Of a DNA stretch of 64,000 nucleotides, positions 31,537-43,700 are shown piece after piece. The position numbers and the translations under genes are program-made. The notes beneath the pieces were generated by a model. The model did not search any database. It saw nothing but the letters and a program-made list of their open reading frames with translations, and was not told where the DNA came from. This DNA is from an uncultured cyanobacterium (lineage in GTDB: Bacteria > Cyanobacteriota > Cyanobacteriia > Pseudanabaenales > Pseudanabaenaceae): assembly GCA_963703315.1 (NCBI GenBank), contig OY969811.1:2432001-2496000 (forward strand). Reading direction: 5' to 3'. Within the stretch, counting starts at the first letter, position 1. Every line of letters starts with the position of its first letter.

Positions 31537-34500
31537 TTATGTTTGCGATTCGATCGCACCTTCGGCATCATTAGCGATCGCCTTTAAGCGATCCAACATA
31601 TCCGCAGTCACATCTTGCCACATCCCACGCTGATTCGCTTCTAGCAAGCGTTCCGACATATCTCGCAAAGCCCAAGGATTGCTAGATTTAATAAAATTCT
31701 GGACTTCAGGATTAAAGATATATGCCTCCGCAACCCCCTCATACATAAAGTCGGAAACGCAGTTAGTCGTAGCATCATAGGCAAATAGATAATCGAGCGT
31801 TGCCGACATCTCGAAAGCCCCTTTGTAACCGTGACGCATTGCCCCTGATATCCATTTGGGGTTAACGACACGTGATCGATAAACCCGCGCAATCTCTTCA
31901 CTCAATTTGCGAACCTTTGGCTGCGCCATGCGGGAATTATCGCCGAAGTACACTTCTGGCGCATTACCAGCTATGGATTTGACAGCCGTTGTCATCCCAC
32001 CCTGAAACTGATAATAATCATCGGAATCGAGAATGTCATGCTCACGGTTATCTTGATTTTGCAGCACGATTTGCATATTGCCAAGGCGTTGATTAAAGGC
32101 TTCAGGAGCCGATTTTCCTTCAGATTTGCTGGTGTAGGCGTAGGCACTCCAATTGATATAGGCACGGGCTAGATCCTGCTCACTCTCCCAGTTTTGCGAC
32201 TCGATCAAGCCCTGCAAACCTGCACCATAGGCACTCGGCTTCGAGCCAAATACCCGATAACGCGATCGCTCTTGGGCTTGTTCTAAAGTTAATCCTTCTC
32301 TTTGCCATTGTGCGGATTCTGCTTGGACTTTTGCCGCTAAGGGATTCTGATCGGCAGATTCATCAAGATTCGCAACCGCATTCACCGCACTATCAAATAG
32401 ATCGATCAAATTTGGGAACGCATCTCGAAAGAATCCCGAAATCCTCAAGGTGACATCGATACGAGGACGACCGAGGATTGATAAAGGCAAAATCTCAAAA
32501 TCCACCACTCGCCGCGATACGCCATCCCAAACAGGTTGCACTCCCAGTAAAGCCAGAGCTTCGGCTAGGTCATCACCTCCCGTTCGCATTGTGGAGGTTC
32601 CCCAAATAGATAGCCCTAGGGTTTGCGGATATTCGCCATGTTCTTGGGTATAGGTTTCGATCAGCACATCCGCAGCCTTGCGCCCAATATCCCAAGCGGT
32701 TTCCGTCGGTACGGCGCGAATATCTACAGAATAGAAATTGCGTCCTGTAGGTAATACTTCAGGTCTGCCCCTTGTCGGCGCACCCGATGCACCACTAGGC
32801 ACATATTCGCCATTGAGTCCACGCAGGAGATTGGTGATTTCTTGATTGGTTTTGTAGAGAGATGGTAAAAGGCGATCGCGAATCCATGTTAGTTCTTTTG
32901 GGATTGCAAGACCCTCATCCCCCAGCCCCTTCTCCCATGAAGGGAGAAGGGGAGCAAGATTTTTCCTGTCCCCCTCTCCCCCTTTGGGAGAGGGGCTAGG
33001 GGTGAGGGTATCCACCAAATCCGCCGCATATTCCTCTATAACTTCAACGGCATCGCCAATAATCCGACAATTCGCTAAGCGTGGATGCGAACTTGGCGCA
33101 AGCAACTCCCCTAAATCCGCAGTCAAGGGATCAAAATCTAATTGCCAATCCTGCGCGATCGCCCTAGTCAGTCCCAAACGATTAGCCGTAGGATTGCGGG
33201 CGATCGCTACTACTAAATCCCTTAACTGTCTCCCTTCTGGACATTGCCCGAAAATATGCAACCCGTCGCGAATTTGTGCTTCTTTAATTTCGCAGAGATA
33301 ACCATCGGCTGTCGTGAGAATTGTATTCAGCGAATCCTCTAAACGGTCTAAGGAAATCCCTAAATCATGATAGAGATTTTCCTGTTTGATGGTTTCTATG
33401 AGGCGATCGCGAATCATCCCTAAACGCGAAGGATCTAAAGTTTCTGCTTCGTAATATTCATCGATTAAGCCTTCCAATTGCTGCAAACCACCATACAACT
33501 CGGCGCGAGTCATTGGTGGCGTAAGATGATCGAGAATTACTGCTTGCGATCGCCTTTTTGCTTGAGAGCCTTCGCCGGGGTCGTTGACAATAAAGGGATA
33601 GAAATGGGGCATTGCTCCAAAAGCAGCTTCAGGATAGCAATTTTCTGATAGAGCTACACTTTTTCCGGGAAGCCATTCGAGATTGCCATGTTTGCCGATA
33701 TGGGCGATCGCATGGGCGTTAAACTTGTCGCGCACCCAATGATAGAAAGCCATATAGTCATGGGTCGGTTCTAAATCTGGCGCGTGATAATTGAGGGTAG
33801 GATCAAGGTCATAGCCCCGTGATGGCTGAATACCGACAAAAATATTCCCGAATTGAATGCCAGCGATCGCAAATTCTGTTTCACATTTTGGCTGATTCCA
33901 TCTTGACTGAATTCCATTTTGGACAGGTTCAGGCAAATTCTGAAAATAGTTTTGATAATCTTCTAGCGCTAAAGATTGATTAACTTGACGCAATCCAAAG
34001 GATTCGCGATCGTTAGTCACGCCTTTAGTTAACAACTTCATCAGTTCATCGCTAGTTTCAGGAATCTCACCAACGCTATAGCCCGAACTTCGCAAAGCTT
34101 TGAGAATCTCTAAACAACTAGCTGGCGTATCTAAGCCGACTCCATTGGCTAATCTGCCATCACGATTGGGATAGTTAGCGAGGATTAGAGCTATTTTGCG
34201 ATCGCACACCTCTGTATGCTTTAGCTGTATCCATTTAGCCGCCAGATCCGCCACAAAATTAATGCGCGATCGCACAGGTTCATAGGTCAATACTTCCGTT
34301 TGTAAAGCTAGATTCTGTCCCTGCATCGCTTTAAACGAAACAGCCCTCGTGATAATCCTGCCATCGACTTCAGGCAACACCACATTCATCGCCATATCGC
34401 GAGGATTGAGTCCTTGCGTACCATTTGCCCAAGTTTTCTTCAGTCCACCACTAAAAATCACCTGAAAGACTGGCACATTCAAAGCTTCCCATAGATCCAC

Positions 34501-35328
34501 TTGTGGTGTATCCGTTTTTAAACTCGCTAAAGAGAAGCTAGTCGTATTTAAAATCACATCGACTTTTTGACCAGATTCAGGTAAGCAATAGCGAATTAAT
34601 TCCGCTTGGACATCAGGTTCTTTTAATGATGAAACATAGATGGGTAAAGGCTCTAAATTGCGATCGCGCAAGGCTTCACATAAAGCAGCGATCGCCGCCG
34701 TATTCCCAGATAAATAATGAGCGCGATAAAAAAGAATCGCCACTCGCTCTCCCGATGGGAGAGGGGGCTGGGGGGTGAGGGTCTCATAAATTCCAATCCG
34801 AGGCACTGGTTGCGGAAGTTTATATTCAGACGCGACATCTAAAAATTCTTTAGCAACAAACTTCAATAGATTTTGATAGTTATTAACTCCCGCTTCGATG
34901 AAATATTGCCAAGCTTGATTTACTAAAGTTAGTGAGGTCGTAGAATGGCTAGTCAAACTAGGATCAGGACGCTCATCCCCCGGTAATACGATTAAGACCG
35001 CACCATTATTTAGTACAGTTTCCTTAACTACTTCCAATCCATAACTCCAGTAAGACTGCCCTCCAATTAATCTAACAATAATTACTTTTGCTTGCGATAG
35101 AACCTCTTCTGCATAGGTATCGATCGCGATTTGTTGCTGCAATTGCAATACATTCACTACCCTGATTTGTGGGAAATCTTCAGGTAATTGAGCAGTAGCC
35201 GCCGCAAGAGTCTGGATATCCGTATCGGCGGCAGTAATAATCACAATCGGTGCAGGTTGCTGCTCGACAAAAATTACACTGTCGGTGGACTGATTCCAGC
35301 CCCCTGATATGGTAGCGATACGATGCAT
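31537..35328 (-). CDS. cobN: Cobaltochelatase subunit CobN
   Basis: MHRIAT, GKHGNLEWLPGK, LPTGRNFYSVD, QDNREHD, NPKWI...HGYKGA; carries two in-frame repeat insertions. Confidence 0.95.
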   Translation of the reverse strand: MHRIATISGGWNQSTDSVIFVEQQPAPIVIITAADTDIQTLAAATAQLPEDFPQIRVVNVLQLQQQIAIDTYAEEVLSQAKVIIVRLIGGQSYWSYGLEVVKETVLNNGAVLIVLPGDERPDPSLTSHSTTSLTLVNQAWQYFIEAGVNNYQNLLKFVAKEFLDVASEYKLPQPVPRIGIYETLTPQPPLPSGERVAILFYRAHYLSGNTAAIAALCEALRDRNLEPLPIYVSSLKEPDVQAELIRYCLPESGQKVDVILNTTSFSLASLKTDTPQVDLWEALNVPVFQVIFSGGLKKTWANGTQGLNPRDMAMNVVLPEVDGRIITRAVSFKAMQGQNLALQTEVLTYEPVRSRINFVADLAAKWIQLKHTEVCDRKIALILANYPNRDGRLANGVGLDTPASCLEILKALRSSGYSVGEIPETSDELMKLLTKGVTNDRESFGLRQVNQSLALEDYQNYFQNLPEPVQNGIQSRWNQPKCETEFAIAGIQFGNIFVGIQPSRGYDLDPTLNYHAPDLEPTHDYMAFYHWVRDKFNAHAIAHIGKHGNLEWLPGKSVALSENCYPEAAFGAMPHFYPFIVNDPGEGSQAKRRSQAVILDHLTPPMTRAELYGGLQQLEGLIDEYYEAETLDPSRLGMIRDRLIETIKQENLYHDLGISLDRLEDSLNTILTTADGYLCEIKEAQIRDGLHIFGQCPEGRQLRDLVVAIARNPTANRLGLTRAIAQDWQLDFDPLTADLGELLAPSSHPRLANCRIIGDAVEVIEEYAADLVDTLTPSPSPKGGEGDRKNLAPLLPSWEKGLGDEGLAIPKELTWIRDRLLPSLYKTNQEITNLLRGLNGEYVPSGASGAPTRGRPEVLPTGRNFYSVDIRAVPTETAWDIGRKAADVLIETYTQEHGEYPQTLGLSIWGTSTMRTGGDDLAEALALLGVQPVWDGVSRRVVDFEILPLSILGRPRIDVTLRISGFFRDAFPNLIDLFDSAVNAVANLDESADQNPLAAKVQAESAQWQREGLTLEQAQERSRYRVFGSKPSAYGAGLQGLIESQNWESEQDLARAYINWSAYAYTSKSEGKSAPEAFNQRLGNMQIVLQNQDNREHDILDSDDYYQFQGGMTTAVKSIAGNAPEVYFGDNSRMAQPKVRKLSEEIARVYRSRVVNPKWISGAMRHGYKGAFEMSATLDYLFAYDATTNCVSDFMYEGVAEAYIFNPEVQNFIKSSNPWALRDMSERLLEANQRGMWQDVTADMLDRLKAIANDAEGAIESQT
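32912..33008. repeat. Inverted pair of G/C-rich palindromic repeats inserted in frame in cobN
   Basis: CCCTCATCCCCCAGCCCCTTCTCCC-atgaa-GGGAGAAGGGG and CCCCTCTCCC-ccttt-GGGAGAGGGGCTAGGGGTGAGGG; translated TLTPSPSPKGGEG...LLPSWEKGLGDEG. Confidence 0.85.
34743..34781. repeat. Single G/C-rich palindromic repeat in frame in cobN
   Basis: CTCTCCC-gat-GGGAGAGGGGGCTGGGGGGTGAGGG; translated TLTPQPPLPSGE. Confidence 0.8.
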
Positions 35329-40277: not shown

Positions 40278-43200
40278 TCATTCGTTTTTCTTAACCCGTT
40301 TTTTCTTCTCGACTTTGAGCAATGGCGCACTTAGGGCTTCATAGAGGCTAAATAAATACTCGATGCGGTTTAGTTCGCTAACAAAGGGCTGGGGACGATA
40401 GCAAAGGTCTACGGCTTTGTCTAGGGTTTGATGTGCTTTTACCAAGTCGGGCGGCATGGTAAGAGGATCATAAAGATCGGCGAGGCTGGATCTGACCTCC
40501 CCCTGCCCCTCCTTGCAAGGAGGGGAGTTAGACTCTAGCTCTTGTCTTCCGCTTAGCGAAAGTTTTTCTTGTTCCCCTCCTTGCAAGGAGGGGCTAGGGG
40601 AGGTGTATTTCTCGCGCACCGCCAAAACCAACCGCGCCGCATCTTCCACTTTTTGTTTTTGTTTGTCGCTTGCGTTTTCAGGGAATGGATAGTTGTTGTA
40701 AACGATAGTATTGGAATAGCGAAAACGACTTTCTAATCTTCCACAAACGTACTTAACCCAAGTCATGTGCATTTCAGAAGTGAGAACACCAAATAGATAA
40801 AAGCTAGAATCAGCAATAAAAGAGCAAAGATTGCTTGGCACTATAGTCTTATCAATAAATCCAAAAGGTACATATTTCCTATTCTCTGATGAAACTAATG
40901 GGACGATAATTGCGGAATCTGGATTATGCTTATCTCTGAAAGTTGTAGGATAGTCGGCTAAAAAGCGAGCTTGCTTATCAGGGCTTGCTAATCGTAGCTG
41001 TCTTACATTTTCAATCCTCTTCATCACCAAAGGCATTTTCTTTAATTCCTGTGGCTGTGCGTTAACTAGCCAAAGACACCATCGACTTTTGCCGTTGATA
41101 AACTCTTCTGAACCAATGAATTGCTTAAAATACTTAGCTGATAAAGGCTCTTCTTGAATAAATTGATATTTCTCTTGATCGGTAAAAATCAAGTTTCCAC
41201 CATCTATAGCCTTATTCCCAGCTAACATTGATGGGACATTACAAATCGGCTTAGTTCTTTTCAAAATCACTAAATCATTACCTTCAGTTAGATATGGATT
41301 AATATTTCTAACCTTTCTCTGTGTGGGTTCACCCTTAATATTTAGATAATCAAAGATTCTCTTATTTTCAACATCCTGCAAACCGAAGCCAATAATTACA
41401 CAATGCACAGCAGCATTAGCTTTAGCTTCATTACTCCAACTAAAAGTACGATGAGCAAAATGAATTTTAATCTTGTATTTATTGTAAAGCTCTTGCCAGA
41501 GAATCCCAACTTGTTCACCTTGAGAAATAGAACTCGTACTAACAAAAGCACATTTGACCTCCCCTAGCCCCTCCTTGGAAGGAGGGGAACAAGAATTTAG
41601 ATATTGAGCAGCTTTCAAGTACCAAGCGCAAACATAATCTAGTACACCAGCCCCATTTACCCCAGCAAAAATCATCTCCATATCTGACTTTTGCTCAACA
41701 CTTTGCAGATGCTTCCCTACAAAAGGCGGATTACCCAAAATATAATCAAATAATCCCCCACGTAACTCTTTCTCTTGTCCCCCTCCTTCCAAGGAGGGGC
41801 TAGGGGAGGTTCTTAAATGTTCCCTAATATCCTCCAGCACCCCATCTAAATTCTCGAAAATTAAATTGTTGGCATATCGCAAAACCGTAATCCCAACACC
41901 GCACAAAAATTCATCTCTAATCGCATCATATTCTTGACCCTCCTTCGTAAAATGTTGCCCGCCATCCAACTCGATCGCTAAATTAGCACTCGGACAAAAG
42001 AAATCCAAAATGTAATTACCAATCGAATGCTGTCTTCTAAACTTAAATCCATGCAATTGTTTGCCCTGCAATGCTTTCCACAAAGCCACCTCCGCAGGAG
42101 TTGCATTATTTCGCAACTCTCGTCGAAAATCTTTCTTACTTGCAAGATTACTAATCGCCTTATAAGGAACTTGATCGCCTAAATCTTCTTTTCCTCCTTT
42201 CAAGGAGGGGCTAGGGGAGGTCATACCCCTTTCTCCTTTCAAAGAAAAACTAGAAGAAGTTGTAGAGAACTTTGGAACCACCCCTAACCCCTCCTTTGAA
42301 GGAGGGGAACAAGATCTCCAATCAATCCGCAACGAATTACCATGCACAATCTTCGCCGACTTCTTCAACGGCAACCGCACAAAATACTGCCCAAACTCAT
42401 TACTCACCTTCACATTCATCTGATGGTCGATCAACCACATCGCCACCTCAGCAACCCGCACCGCAAACTCATCATACTCAATCCCCGCAAACTGATCCAC
42501 ATCCACCTGAATAAACAACCGCACATCCAGAAAACTCTTGTGCTTTCTGTACAACTCCTTTAAAATTTCAAGCTCTAAATCTCGCAACTCCCGATAAGTA
42601 ATAATCAAGAAATTGCCACAACCACAAGCAGGATCGAGAAAATGCAAATTTGCAATCTTTTCATGTAACTCCTCTAGCTTGCCCTTACTCCCCTTCGCTT
42701 TCTCAAACTCAACATACAAATCATCCAAAAAAAGCGGTCTAATCAACTTTTGAATATTCTTCTCAGAAGTATAATGCGCCCCCAAATTTCGCCGTTCCGT
42801 CTGATTCATCACCGCCTGAAACATCGACCCAAAAATTGCAGGCGAAATCTTACCCCAATCAAACGCACAAGCTTTTAACAATATTTCACGCATCCCACTG
42901 TCAAACGACGCAGGCTGCAAAGGCTCCGCAAATAGCTTCCCATTCACATAGGGAAACTGTGTCAGATTCTCATCTAAATTTTTTAATCGCCGATCAGGTG
43001 GCGTATTCAATACATGAAAAATCGAAGCAATATGCATCGCCAAATCGCTACCATCTTCCTTAGTATGGCGATCGACATATTCCCAGAAAATCCCCTTATT
43101 AAAAATGCTCGTATCATCGGCAAACAGACAAAATAACAGCCGTACCAGATAGACCTCTAAATCATGCCCACTATAGCCAATCTCCTTGAGGCGATCGTGC

Positions 43201-43700
43201 AGTTCCCCCATCAATTCCGCAGCTTTAATATTGACAGGATCTTCATCCTTATAAACCCGTTTCTCATATCCCGCCATAAAGCCGAATAGATGCACATGGT
43301 CTACAAAACCCTTTAGCTCAAACTCTTTAGTCTCATCCGTATCCAAATCATAGAGTCTGAATTTCTGAAAATCCGACACCAAAATATACTTGGGTAACTC
43401 ATGCTCCTTTAAATTAGGGAAATAATCCTTAGCCTGTTGTGTCGCCTTGTCCAAGTCCTTGCCCCTAGACTTATGCTCCACCAAAATCGTCCCCTTCCAC
43501 AGCAAATCAATAAACCCCTGTTTGTTATCCGCCTTTTTAATCGGTAGCTCAAAACTCCCCACCCGCCGCCGTGAAATGCCAAACACATTAAAAAAATCAT
43601 TCCAAAAAGATTGAGACTCTGACTTCTCTGAAGTTTCACTTTCCCACTCCTTAGAAAAGGCGATCGCTCTTTGCTTAATCTCATTCCAACTTAGCGGCAT
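40278..43700 (-). CDS. MmeI-like type IIL restriction-modification enzyme with inserted DUF559 endonuclease domain
   Basis: N-terminal PD-(D/E)xK (FIDLLW...VEHKS), GAHYTSE, motif I DPACGCGNF, motif IV GNPPF, C-terminal SLADLYDPLTMP; ~189-aa insert between RIDW and FDYILGNPPF. Confidence 0.9.
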   Translation of the reverse strand: MPLSWNEIKQRAIAFSKEWESETSEKSESQSFWNDFFNVFGISRRRVGSFELPIKKADNKQGFIDLLWKGTILVEHKSRGKDLDKATQQAKDYFPNLKEHELPKYILVSDFQKFRLYDLDTDETKEFELKGFVDHVHLFGFMAGYEKRVYKDEDPVNIKAAELMGELHDRLKEIGYSGHDLEVYLVRLLFCLFADDTSIFNKGIFWEYVDRHTKEDGSDLAMHIASIFHVLNTPPDRRLKNLDENLTQFPYVNGKLFAEPLQPASFDSGMREILLKACAFDWGKISPAIFGSMFQAVMNQTERRNLGAHYTSEKNIQKLIRPLFLDDLYVEFEKAKGSKGKLEELHEKIANLHFLDPACGCGNFLIITYRELRDLELEILKELYRKHKSFLDVRLFIQVDVDQFAGIEYDEFAVRVAEVAMWLIDHQMNVKVSNEFGQYFVRLPLKKSAKIVHGNSLRIDWRSCSPPSKEGLGVVPKFSTTSSSFSLKGERGMTSPSPSLKGGKEDLGDQVPYKAISNLASKKDFRRELRNNATPAEVALWKALQGKQLHGFKFRRQHSIGNYILDFFCPSANLAIELDGGQHFTKEGQEYDAIRDEFLCGVGITVLRYANNLIFENLDGVLEDIREHLRTSPSPSLEGGGQEKELRGGLFDYILGNPPFVGKHLQSVEQKSDMEMIFAGVNGAGVLDYVCAWYLKAAQYLNSCSPPSKEGLGEVKCAFVSTSSISQGEQVGILWQELYNKYKIKIHFAHRTFSWSNEAKANAAVHCVIIGFGLQDVENKRIFDYLNIKGEPTQRKVRNINPYLTEGNDLVILKRTKPICNVPSMLAGNKAIDGGNLIFTDQEKYQFIQEEPLSAKYFKQFIGSEEFINGKSRWCLWLVNAQPQELKKMPLVMKRIENVRQLRLASPDKQARFLADYPTTFRDKHNPDSAIIVPLVSSENRKYVPFGFIDKTIVPSNLCSFIADSSFYLFGVLTSEMHMTWVKYVCGRLESRFRYSNTIVYNNYPFPENASDKQKQKVEDAARLVLAVREKYTSPSPSLQGGEQEKLSLSGRQELESNSPPCKEGQGEVRSSLADLYDPLTMPPDLVKAHQTLDKAVDLCYRPQPFVSELNRIEYLFSLYEALSAPLLKVEKKKRVKKNE
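40495..42314. repeat. About seven copies of a ~35-bp palindromic repeat (ACCTCCCCTAGCCCCTCCTT-nn-AAGGAGGGGA) in both orientations, all in frame
   Basis: Copies at 40495-40527, 40572-40604, 41557-41594, 41773-41810, 42191-42221, 42226-42260 (degenerate), 42277-42314. Confidence 0.9.
41811..42150 (-). other. DUF559 (Vsr-like PD-(D/E)xK) endonuclease domain inside the MTase domain
   Basis: RRELRNNATPAEVALWKAL...FKFRRQHSIGNYILDFFC...LAIELDGGQH...D..RD..L...GITVLRY.N. Confidence 0.88.

Follow-up and report, generated by a model that had tools for sequence, protein, structure and literature searches.

An in-frame DUF559 insertion in an MmeI-family gene

We analysed a 64,000-nt stretch of DNA from an uncultured Pseudanabaenaceae cyanobacterium (contig OY969811.1 of assembly GCA_963703315.1, positions 2,432,001 to 2,496,000; hereafter the window), in which a gene for an MmeI-family single-chain restriction-modification enzyme (40278..43700, minus strand, 1140 aa) carries a DUF559 nuclease domain between hairpin repeats, all of it read in the host frame. 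The host protein matches MmeI_N, MmeI_hel, MmeI_Mtase, MmeI_TRD, and MmeI_C, all five above the Pfam cut-off, and its MmeI_Mtase domain is matched in two separate stretches. The initial annotation had placed about 189 residues between the RIDW and FDYILGNPPF motifs of the methyltransferase; exactly 189 separate RIDW (aa 458-461) from FDYILGNPPF (aa 651-660) in the window protein. The insertion therefore comprises 189 codons (567 bp, aa 462-650; 41751..42317, minus strand), ends in ...ELRGGL directly before FDY, and takes the place of the 10-residue linker of alleles that are empty at this site.

The DUF559 domain, a Vsr-like PD-(D/E)xK nuclease, spans aa 522-629 (41814..42137, minus strand; Pfam E 9e-33). 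It is complete, as had been claimed: PF04480 is matched over profile positions 3-108 of 109 with 112.9 bits against a cut-off of 20.6 (E 6.1e-34 in the genome scan). NCBIfam PRK09767 also matches the domain at 86 bits, under its equivalog cut-off of 218, and the closest solved relative is PDB 3HRL (E 1.5e-20), whose record shows a structure without a described activity. The residues D45, E56, D58, G59, and H62 (D ... E-x-D-G-x-x-H), together with D/R columns, are invariant in 9/9 diverged copies from the genus, including both copies of the window genome. The assignment of catalytic residues within the DUF559 core is presumed here.

The insert had been described as lacking intein signatures and as containing no intron, and this is borne out. 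A family scan of the host protein finds no intein or Hint family at E ≤ 0.01, no His-Asn stands at the downstream junction, and the reading frame is open throughout; both an intein and an intron are therefore rejected. A separately started nuclease inside the host open reading frame (ORF) is rejected as well, because a candidate internal Met is present in just one of 10 filled alleles. Since there is no conserved internal start codon, the DUF559 domain would be made only as part of the host protein.

Hairpin modules around the nuclease

The repeat is a 38-nt module composed of a C-rich flank and the hairpin CCCCTCCTT-NN-AAGGAGGGG, and it was located on both sides of DUF559 (42183-42314 and 41773-41810), in agreement with the initial annotation. 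All modules described here are on the minus strand. In the sense of the gene, the cassette is ordered as an inverted module, a decayed module, a direct module, the nuclease, and a direct module. The module at the gene-5' end (42277..42314; -8.7 kcal/mol, z -4.8) codes SCSPPSKEGLGVV and forms the left terminal inverted repeat, and its position and orientation are those of the upstream module in standalone elements of Acidobacteria. The degenerate module (42230..42260) has 71% identity to the reference module and, at -1.1 kcal/mol, no stable fold. Repeat and fold analysis places the internal module, which codes TSPSPSLKGGKED, at 42183..42221 in direct orientation relative to the right-end module. 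The latter, at the gene-3' end (41773..41810; -8.3 kcal/mol), codes TSPSPSLEGGGQE and is the right terminal inverted repeat, so that the outer 38-nt pair 42277-42314 / 41773-41810 provides the cassette with terminal inverted repeats. The fold energies of the intact modules, computed for single-stranded DNA, are -8.3 to -8.7 kcal/mol. Most relatives have a full double hairpin at the right end: a second inverted module follows the right-end module in 8 of 10 filled alleles and has decayed to 41751-41772 in the window.

The same repeat had also been reported without a nuclease at two more in-frame sites of the host gene, and both were recovered. Repeat analysis identifies a solo module coding CSPPSKEGLGEV at the second site (41557..41594). 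At the third site lies a solo double-hairpin unit of 110 nt (40495..40604; -40.5 kcal/mol, z -11.5), which consists of inverted modules at 40495-40532 and 40567-40604 and codes TSPSPSLQGGEQE...SPPCKEGQGEV.

The core CCCCTCCTTNNAAGGAGGGG is present in five copies in the 4.57-Mb genome, and chance placement of the repeat is excluded because all five lie inside the host gene. In a sample of 48 genomes of the genus (Pseudanabaena, according to the source names of the closest proteins), this private hairpin is found at 71 sites in 14 genomes, all within ≤3 kb in the lineage of the window gene, and none of the 48 genomes has it outside that lineage. DUF559 is present at the CCCCTCCTTNNAAGGAGGGG loci of 13 of the 14 genomes, and the contig ends in the remaining one. 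Judged from these sequences, the nuclease and the hairpins are travelling as one unit that always carries the same private variant, and the window hairpins appear to be matched to their nuclease.

The hairpin DNA and the protein it codes were also compared for constraint. The ratio of nonsynonymous to synonymous substitution rates (dN/dS), computed on 8 of 10 filled loci, is 0.10 for DUF559, 0.11 for the N-terminal part of the host, 0.07 for the rest of the methyltransferase, and 0.24 for the target recognition domain (TRD); by this measure of sequence divergence, the DUF559 domain is under purifying selection. The hairpin-coded linkers have dN/dS values of 0.51 and 0.71 with a lower dS (0.25), which fits constraint on the hairpin DNA and not on the linker peptides. 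A model of the whole protein has a mean predicted local distance difference test score (pLDDT) of 66 and just 45-65 in the DUF559 core, and it was used for linker disorder alone. The segments with pLDDT <50 include aa 468-532, 631-648, 707-713, and 1035-1069, all of which cover hairpin-coded stretches, and the host domains downstream of the insert reach 80-93. The hairpin-coded linkers are thus predicted to be disordered, which agrees with the earlier suggestion that the repeats survive as translated loops.

Filled and empty alleles of the host gene

Alignment of the 120 best homologues shows that the insert is present in 17 and that the other 103 have a 10-residue linker at the site. Among these close homologues the short linker is the common state, in line with what had been assumed for the MmeI family, and not all of them carry the domain. 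Within the genus, the DNA interval from HGN to NPPF measures 81 nt in 7/7 empty alleles and 624-726 nt in 10/10 filled alleles. The linker of the empty allele is replaced, not duplicated, by the cassette. Hairpins at the second site are found in 16/17 DUF559-bearing alleles and those at the third site in 10/15 complete DUF559-bearing alleles, compared with 0/103 empty alleles at either site. On host trees built from all 17 filled alleles and every second empty one (52/103; the TRD tree lacks one truncated row), and counting well-supported branches only, the filled state requires at least six changes on the N-terminal tree and at least eight on the TRD tree. The window allele is itself a mosaic: upstream of the site it has 94-99% DNA identity to an empty allele, and downstream it has 87-99% identity to filled alleles and 50-80% to empty ones.

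Contigs of four public sequencing runs were also compared with the window, whose allele is in no RNA run. Contigs of relatives break at 42318 and 41552 and carry the linker of the empty allele; these empty alleles are seen in an RNA contig of a relative (run X16) and as loose ends in runs X15 and X2, and contigs of run X1 end at the hairpins. In run X2, a filled relative is represented as well, by a contig that spans 41300-42314 and has 111 differences, in addition to the empty-linker loose ends at 42318; the two states could represent two strains or two genes.

Hairpin types across nuclease clades

We collected DUF559 domains for flanking hairpins, as the initial annotation had proposed. A peptide pattern for hairpin scars matches 43/105 embedded domains and 11/249 control windows; it missed the window's own motif, and the search was therefore moved to the DNA level. 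There, a perfect GC-rich hairpin lies within 250 nt at 29/31 DUF559 loci of the genus: 72 hairpins are found in 15.1 kb near DUF559, compared with 5 in 14 kb at a distance of 600-850 nt and 27 in 100 kb of random windows. Among standalone DUF559 genes of the genus, 16/25 have a GC hairpin nearby, and the order of inverted module, ORF, and direct module in standalone genes is that of the outer ends in the window. When five hairpin states are placed on a DUF559 tree, which holds 51 of the 56 loci offered, they require four changes, the minimum, whereas shuffled states require 27.8 on average and none of 200 shuffles is as low; because the genomes of one genus are kin, this test overstates independence, and four changes are few events. 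The hosts of the clade with the CCCCTCTCCC hairpin are Type ISP, HsdR, DUF1156-methylase, MmeI-like, and MmeI-B proteins.

The initial annotation also expected repeat abundance to track the nuclease. Without regard to subtype it does not, as double-hairpin ends are uncorrelated with all DUF559 copies in the 48 genomes (rho 0.09, p 0.54). Sorting by nuclease clade changes this null into subtype-matched tracking: CCCCCCTT sites have a median of 35 in genomes with their own DUF559 clade (n=17) and 7 in those without (n=31; p 4.6e-6), and double-hairpin ends have a median of 31 in genomes with embedded non-MmeI-A cassettes (n=19) and 16 in those without (n=29; p 0.003), with the p-values of these abundance tests overstated because the genomes are kin. 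In the double-hairpin test, clade membership is tree-verified for 18 loci and assumed for the rest. The cross-controls do not show the same association: CCCCCCTT sites are similar with and without the double-hairpin clade (median 15, n=19, and 12, n=29; p 0.85), and double-hairpin ends are inversely related to the CCCCCCTT clade (median 11 with, n=17, and 26 without, n=31; p 0.02).

Related insertions in other hosts and phyla

The window subfamily of DUF559 (47-60% identity) is found in frame in 342 matches at E ≤ 1e-10 among proteins of 627-1995 aa. The hosts include restriction-modification proteins, Leu/Met/Ile-tRNA synthetases, methylmalonyl-CoA mutase, HrpA, MutS, Mfd, PriA, MetH, and a MurA-like protein, and hairpin-like peptides lie on both sides of the domain in 9/9 host proteins fetched. 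Standalone relatives from Acidobacteria (four loci) and Emticicia have ends recognisable as those of the window cassette, ACCACCCC...CCCCTCCT...AGGAGGGG, arranged in matching order. When 79 loci were sampled widely at the DNA level, a GC hairpin lay near 12/15 embedded and 14/64 standalone copies, and the copies without a hairpin are mostly from low-GC Flavobacteriia, indicating either that some DUF559 genes are no cassettes of this kind or that the GC criterion, which required at least 70% GC, misses AT-rich ends. The window domain is matched by 12,326 cluster representatives at E ≤ 1e-10, and the family is mostly standalone. An Opitutia assembly (L114, L115) contains two standalone DUF559 genes, each flanked on both sides by a hairpin with a CTCCCGCT stem, which suggests further nuclease-hairpin pairs outside cyanobacteria.

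A second paralogue and dispersed repeats in the window genome

The window genome has three DUF559 matches. Besides the one in the window, one is an ordinary C-terminal domain of a helicase, and the other lies in a second MmeI-family paralogue, P0002 (1162 aa; G000:C1:1658382-1661870, L004:3382-6870, minus strand), which is 32-40% identical to the window host. The DUF559 domain of P0002 (aa 306-408) is 38% identical to that of the window. It separates the helicase-spacer domain from the methyltransferase domain, and three 111-nt double-hairpin units, all in direct orientation, flank it. When P0002 is grouped with its 120 best homologues (n=121), 35 proteins have repeat, nuclease, and repeat at this site, 18 have repeats only, and 68 have a short linker, and both the solo and the full state are present within the genus. 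A solo unit is the expected product of recombination between flanking direct repeats, by deletion. In Limnospira/Arthrospira, alleles of the P0002 family (P0225-P0228, P0233, and P0256) have up to six tandem units before DUF559 and eight after it, in proteins of 1341-1545 aa. A hairpin pair of the CCCCCCTT type is nested in frame within a solo double hairpin of the P0002 family (L035:3400-3560, G001; protein P0300), which means that the hairpin of one subtype landed within the unit of another.

The initial annotation had noted relatives of the window repeat in cobN. A cobN-like ORF of 1263 aa (31537..35328, minus strand) does read through a bare double hairpin at about 32912-33008, identified by repeat match, but this repeat belongs to the CCCCTCTCCC subtype, that of the genome's other DUF559, and not to the window's own. 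The double-hairpin peptide of the cobN-like ORF is ...LTPSPSPKGGEGDRKNLAPLLPSWEKGLGDEG..., and near aa 183 the ORF codes another hairpin-like peptide, the shorter LTPQPPLPSGER.

The window genome holds 23 full double hairpins, one of which contains a nuclease. A shell of 146-147 nt resembling a miniature inverted-repeat transposable element (MITE), with outer inverted ends GGACTTACGCA...TGCGTAAGTCC, is distributed genome-wide (e.g. G000:C1:2604977-2605122 and 732893-733039), with 16 paired copies by pattern search and end words occurring 37 and 35 times. Its cargo varies and consists of different internal double hairpins, the DUF559 type being one of them. The one HUH/Y1 transposase (PF01797) homologue of the genome is at G000:C1:348969, away from the cassette. 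This transposase was considered as the mobiliser and rejected: homologues are present in 40/48 genomes, and their counts do not track double-hairpin counts (rho -0.01).

A candidate mobile cassette and the explanations that compete with it

We propose that DUF559 and its inverted 38-nt hairpins form a selfish mobile cassette that is translated in frame within an MmeI-family gene and whose nuclease is predicted to act on the cognate hairpin ends, a reading to which we give about an even chance of being right. Translated as part of the host protein, the nuclease would nick or cut its own hairpin modules, and this cutting would help the cassette, or bare hairpin modules, to be copied to new sites. 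Only insertions that keep the frame in tolerant loops would survive, and later recombination between flanking direct repeats could delete the nuclease and leave solo hairpins. A broader proposal, which we advance tentatively and consider somewhat doubtful, is that Vsr-like DUF559 mobilises a new class of prokaryotic elements, built as a left hairpin module, the nuclease, and a right hairpin module. Each clade would be matched to its own hairpin of about 38 nt and would seed nuclease-less hairpins and double hairpins, and the elements could persist in translated form inside proteins. According to this proposal, proteins could harbour them because the element ends keep the frame open and code disordered linkers.

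The initial annotation had pictured an autonomous element with non-autonomous repeats, analogous to repetitive extragenic palindromes and their associated tyrosine transposases (REP/RAYT). This picture is upheld in part: the empty alleles, the several sites and hosts, the clade-matched hairpins, and the matched abundance speak for it, and the unmatched count and hairpin-rich genomes without DUF559 do not.

A number of findings weigh against a mobile cassette driven by DUF559. No target-site duplication is recognisable at the first site, at the paralogue site, or at any junction checked. The private hairpin CCCCTCCTTNNAAGGAGGGG never occurs outside its host gene, and nothing points to its spread over more than 3 kb. 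Where a site is occupied, solo repeats may stem from deletion between direct repeats and not from transposition, and ordinary recombination between alleles of MmeI genes can produce the mosaics. By the same GC criterion, 9/25 standalone genes in the genus and 50/64 in the wide sample have no hairpin. Across the ten genomes that lack DUF559, the median number of double-hairpin ends is 19, and four of them (G063, G012, G023, and G035) have 26-39; to these are added the null unmatched count and the kinship of genomes that inflates the tree and abundance tests. Many, perhaps most, of the dispersed double hairpins in the window genome sit inside the MITE-like shell, which has outer inverted repeats of its own and could move them. 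The embedded hosts identified in the genus are all restriction-modification proteins, which would also fit a recruited function.

The alternative that survives best is a homing-type cassette, in which an empty allele, or else a solo double hairpin, is cut by DUF559 and the break is repaired from a filled donor, which copies the cassette, with the hairpins serving as portable homology arms or landing pads and not as transposon ends. Several observations fit: alleles from Pseudanabaena, Geminocystis, and Cyanobacterium are filled at one common site, five residues upstream of the conserved NPPF motif; filled and empty states at this site (17 filled, 103 empty) are out of step with the host trees; and a recombination break in the window allele coincides with the site, its downstream haplotype being common to filled alleles. 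In addition, the ORF lies between complete double-hairpin units with solo units at the same site, and Vsr-like EDxHD nucleases are, according to PMC3384342, proven homing endonucleases. Nevertheless, one nuclease clade with one hairpin type is found in at least five unrelated host genes, for which classical homing would need a new specificity per host. The nuclease is present in just one of the 23 full double hairpins of the window genome, the empty-allele linker is replaced instead of cleanly interrupted, and the mosaics are equally well explained by ordinary allele shuffling. We consider homing unlikely, if credible.

A coincidence of two tenants, in which another enzyme moves the hairpins, DUF559 is separate and has no role in the repeats, and both gather in tolerant loops, would account for the nuclease-less in-frame hairpins of the host gene and cobN, the many double hairpins in genomes without DUF559, the double hairpins carried by the outer shell, and the widespread Y1 transposase homologues. 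This explanation is improbable, since the window variant is confined to the cassette-bearing gene, hairpin type follows nuclease clade with the minimum of changes, standalone genes of other phyla match its ends and their order, hairpins at the second or third site are absent from all empty alleles, and Y1 counts are unrelated to double-hairpin counts. Equally improbable is a recruited domain, that is, DUF559 as a useful accessory nuclease of restriction-modification enzymes on flexible hairpin-coded linkers that spread with its hosts by ordinary recombination: the exclusively restriction-modification hosts in the genus, purifying selection equal to that on the host, and the lack of a conserved internal start are in its favour, but most close homologues do without DUF559 (103/120 and 86/121), its position differs between hosts, standalone copies have the same inverted ends, and the subfamily occurs inside tRNA synthetases, MetH, methylmalonyl-CoA mutase, and a MurA-like protein, for none of which a DNA nuclease would be of obvious benefit. 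Both explanations are less likely than the selfish cassette or its homing variant.

If members of DUF559 are selfish nucleases matched to hairpin ends, a very large family of no known role would gain a function, and many GC-rich hairpin repeats, with their 'PSP...GEG' peptide scars, would gain a testable origin. The cassette would also represent a third way for a nuclease gene to reside inside an essential or defence gene, with neither RNA nor protein splicing, tolerated as a domain bounded by disordered linkers. Pseudanabaena offers a test bed: three nuclease-hairpin pairs occur in it, alleles are naturally empty, solo, or full, and one hairpin variant is private. In the literature on DUF559, PF04480, and EDxHD, with subscription journals outside the coverage, we found neither in-frame DUF559 cassettes nor their hairpin ends described; the window cassette is likely one of a widespread kind.

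Comparison with known systems

In REP/RAYT systems and their REP doublets forming hairpins (REPINs), a single-copy nuclease gene lies between inverted hairpins, many copies lack the nuclease, repeat types are clade-specific, and inverted doublets occur. The window cassette resembles them in its flanked nuclease, its nuclease-less hairpin copies, the pairing of enzyme and repeat, and an abundance tied to the enzyme, as seen among kin genomes of which four keep the repeats without it. It differs in that the flanked gene is a Vsr-like PD-(D/E)xK DUF559 and not an HUH/Y1 (PF01797) enzyme, that it is read through inside proteins, and that its action on the hairpins is only predicted. Short palindromes that are inserted in frame in coding genes and translated as extra loops are likewise known from Rickettsia (palindromic elements) and from Nostocales (small dispersed repeats). 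We know of no nuclease gene tied to either of them, whereas each hairpin type here varies together with a nuclease clade. Inteins with homing endonuclease domains resemble the window insert in that a selfish nuclease is translated as part of a host protein at a conserved position, but the insert has no Hint or splicing domain and no junction residues, and it stays in the mature protein.

Two further systems can be compared. The EDxHD (Vsr-like) homing endonucleases, with the prototype I-Bth0305I (PMC3384342, PMC3239194), have a Vsr-related core and are selfish nucleases at conserved spots of host genes, present in some alleles and absent from others, all of which they have in common with the DUF559 cassette; in contrast to them, the DUF559 cassette is unspliced, has hairpin inverted ends, and occurs as one clade in many unrelated hosts. 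The ShiLan insertion in an actinophage DNA methylase is described in PMC11855218 as unspliced and homing-like, with the host frame kept open and a predicted loop-out; its nuclease is an HNH enzyme encoded in another frame with its own start and stop. The window cassette is similarly a non-spliced, homing-like insertion in a DNA methylase gene that keeps the host frame open, and it is distinguished by a nuclease that is DUF559, lies in the host frame, and is hairpin-ended.

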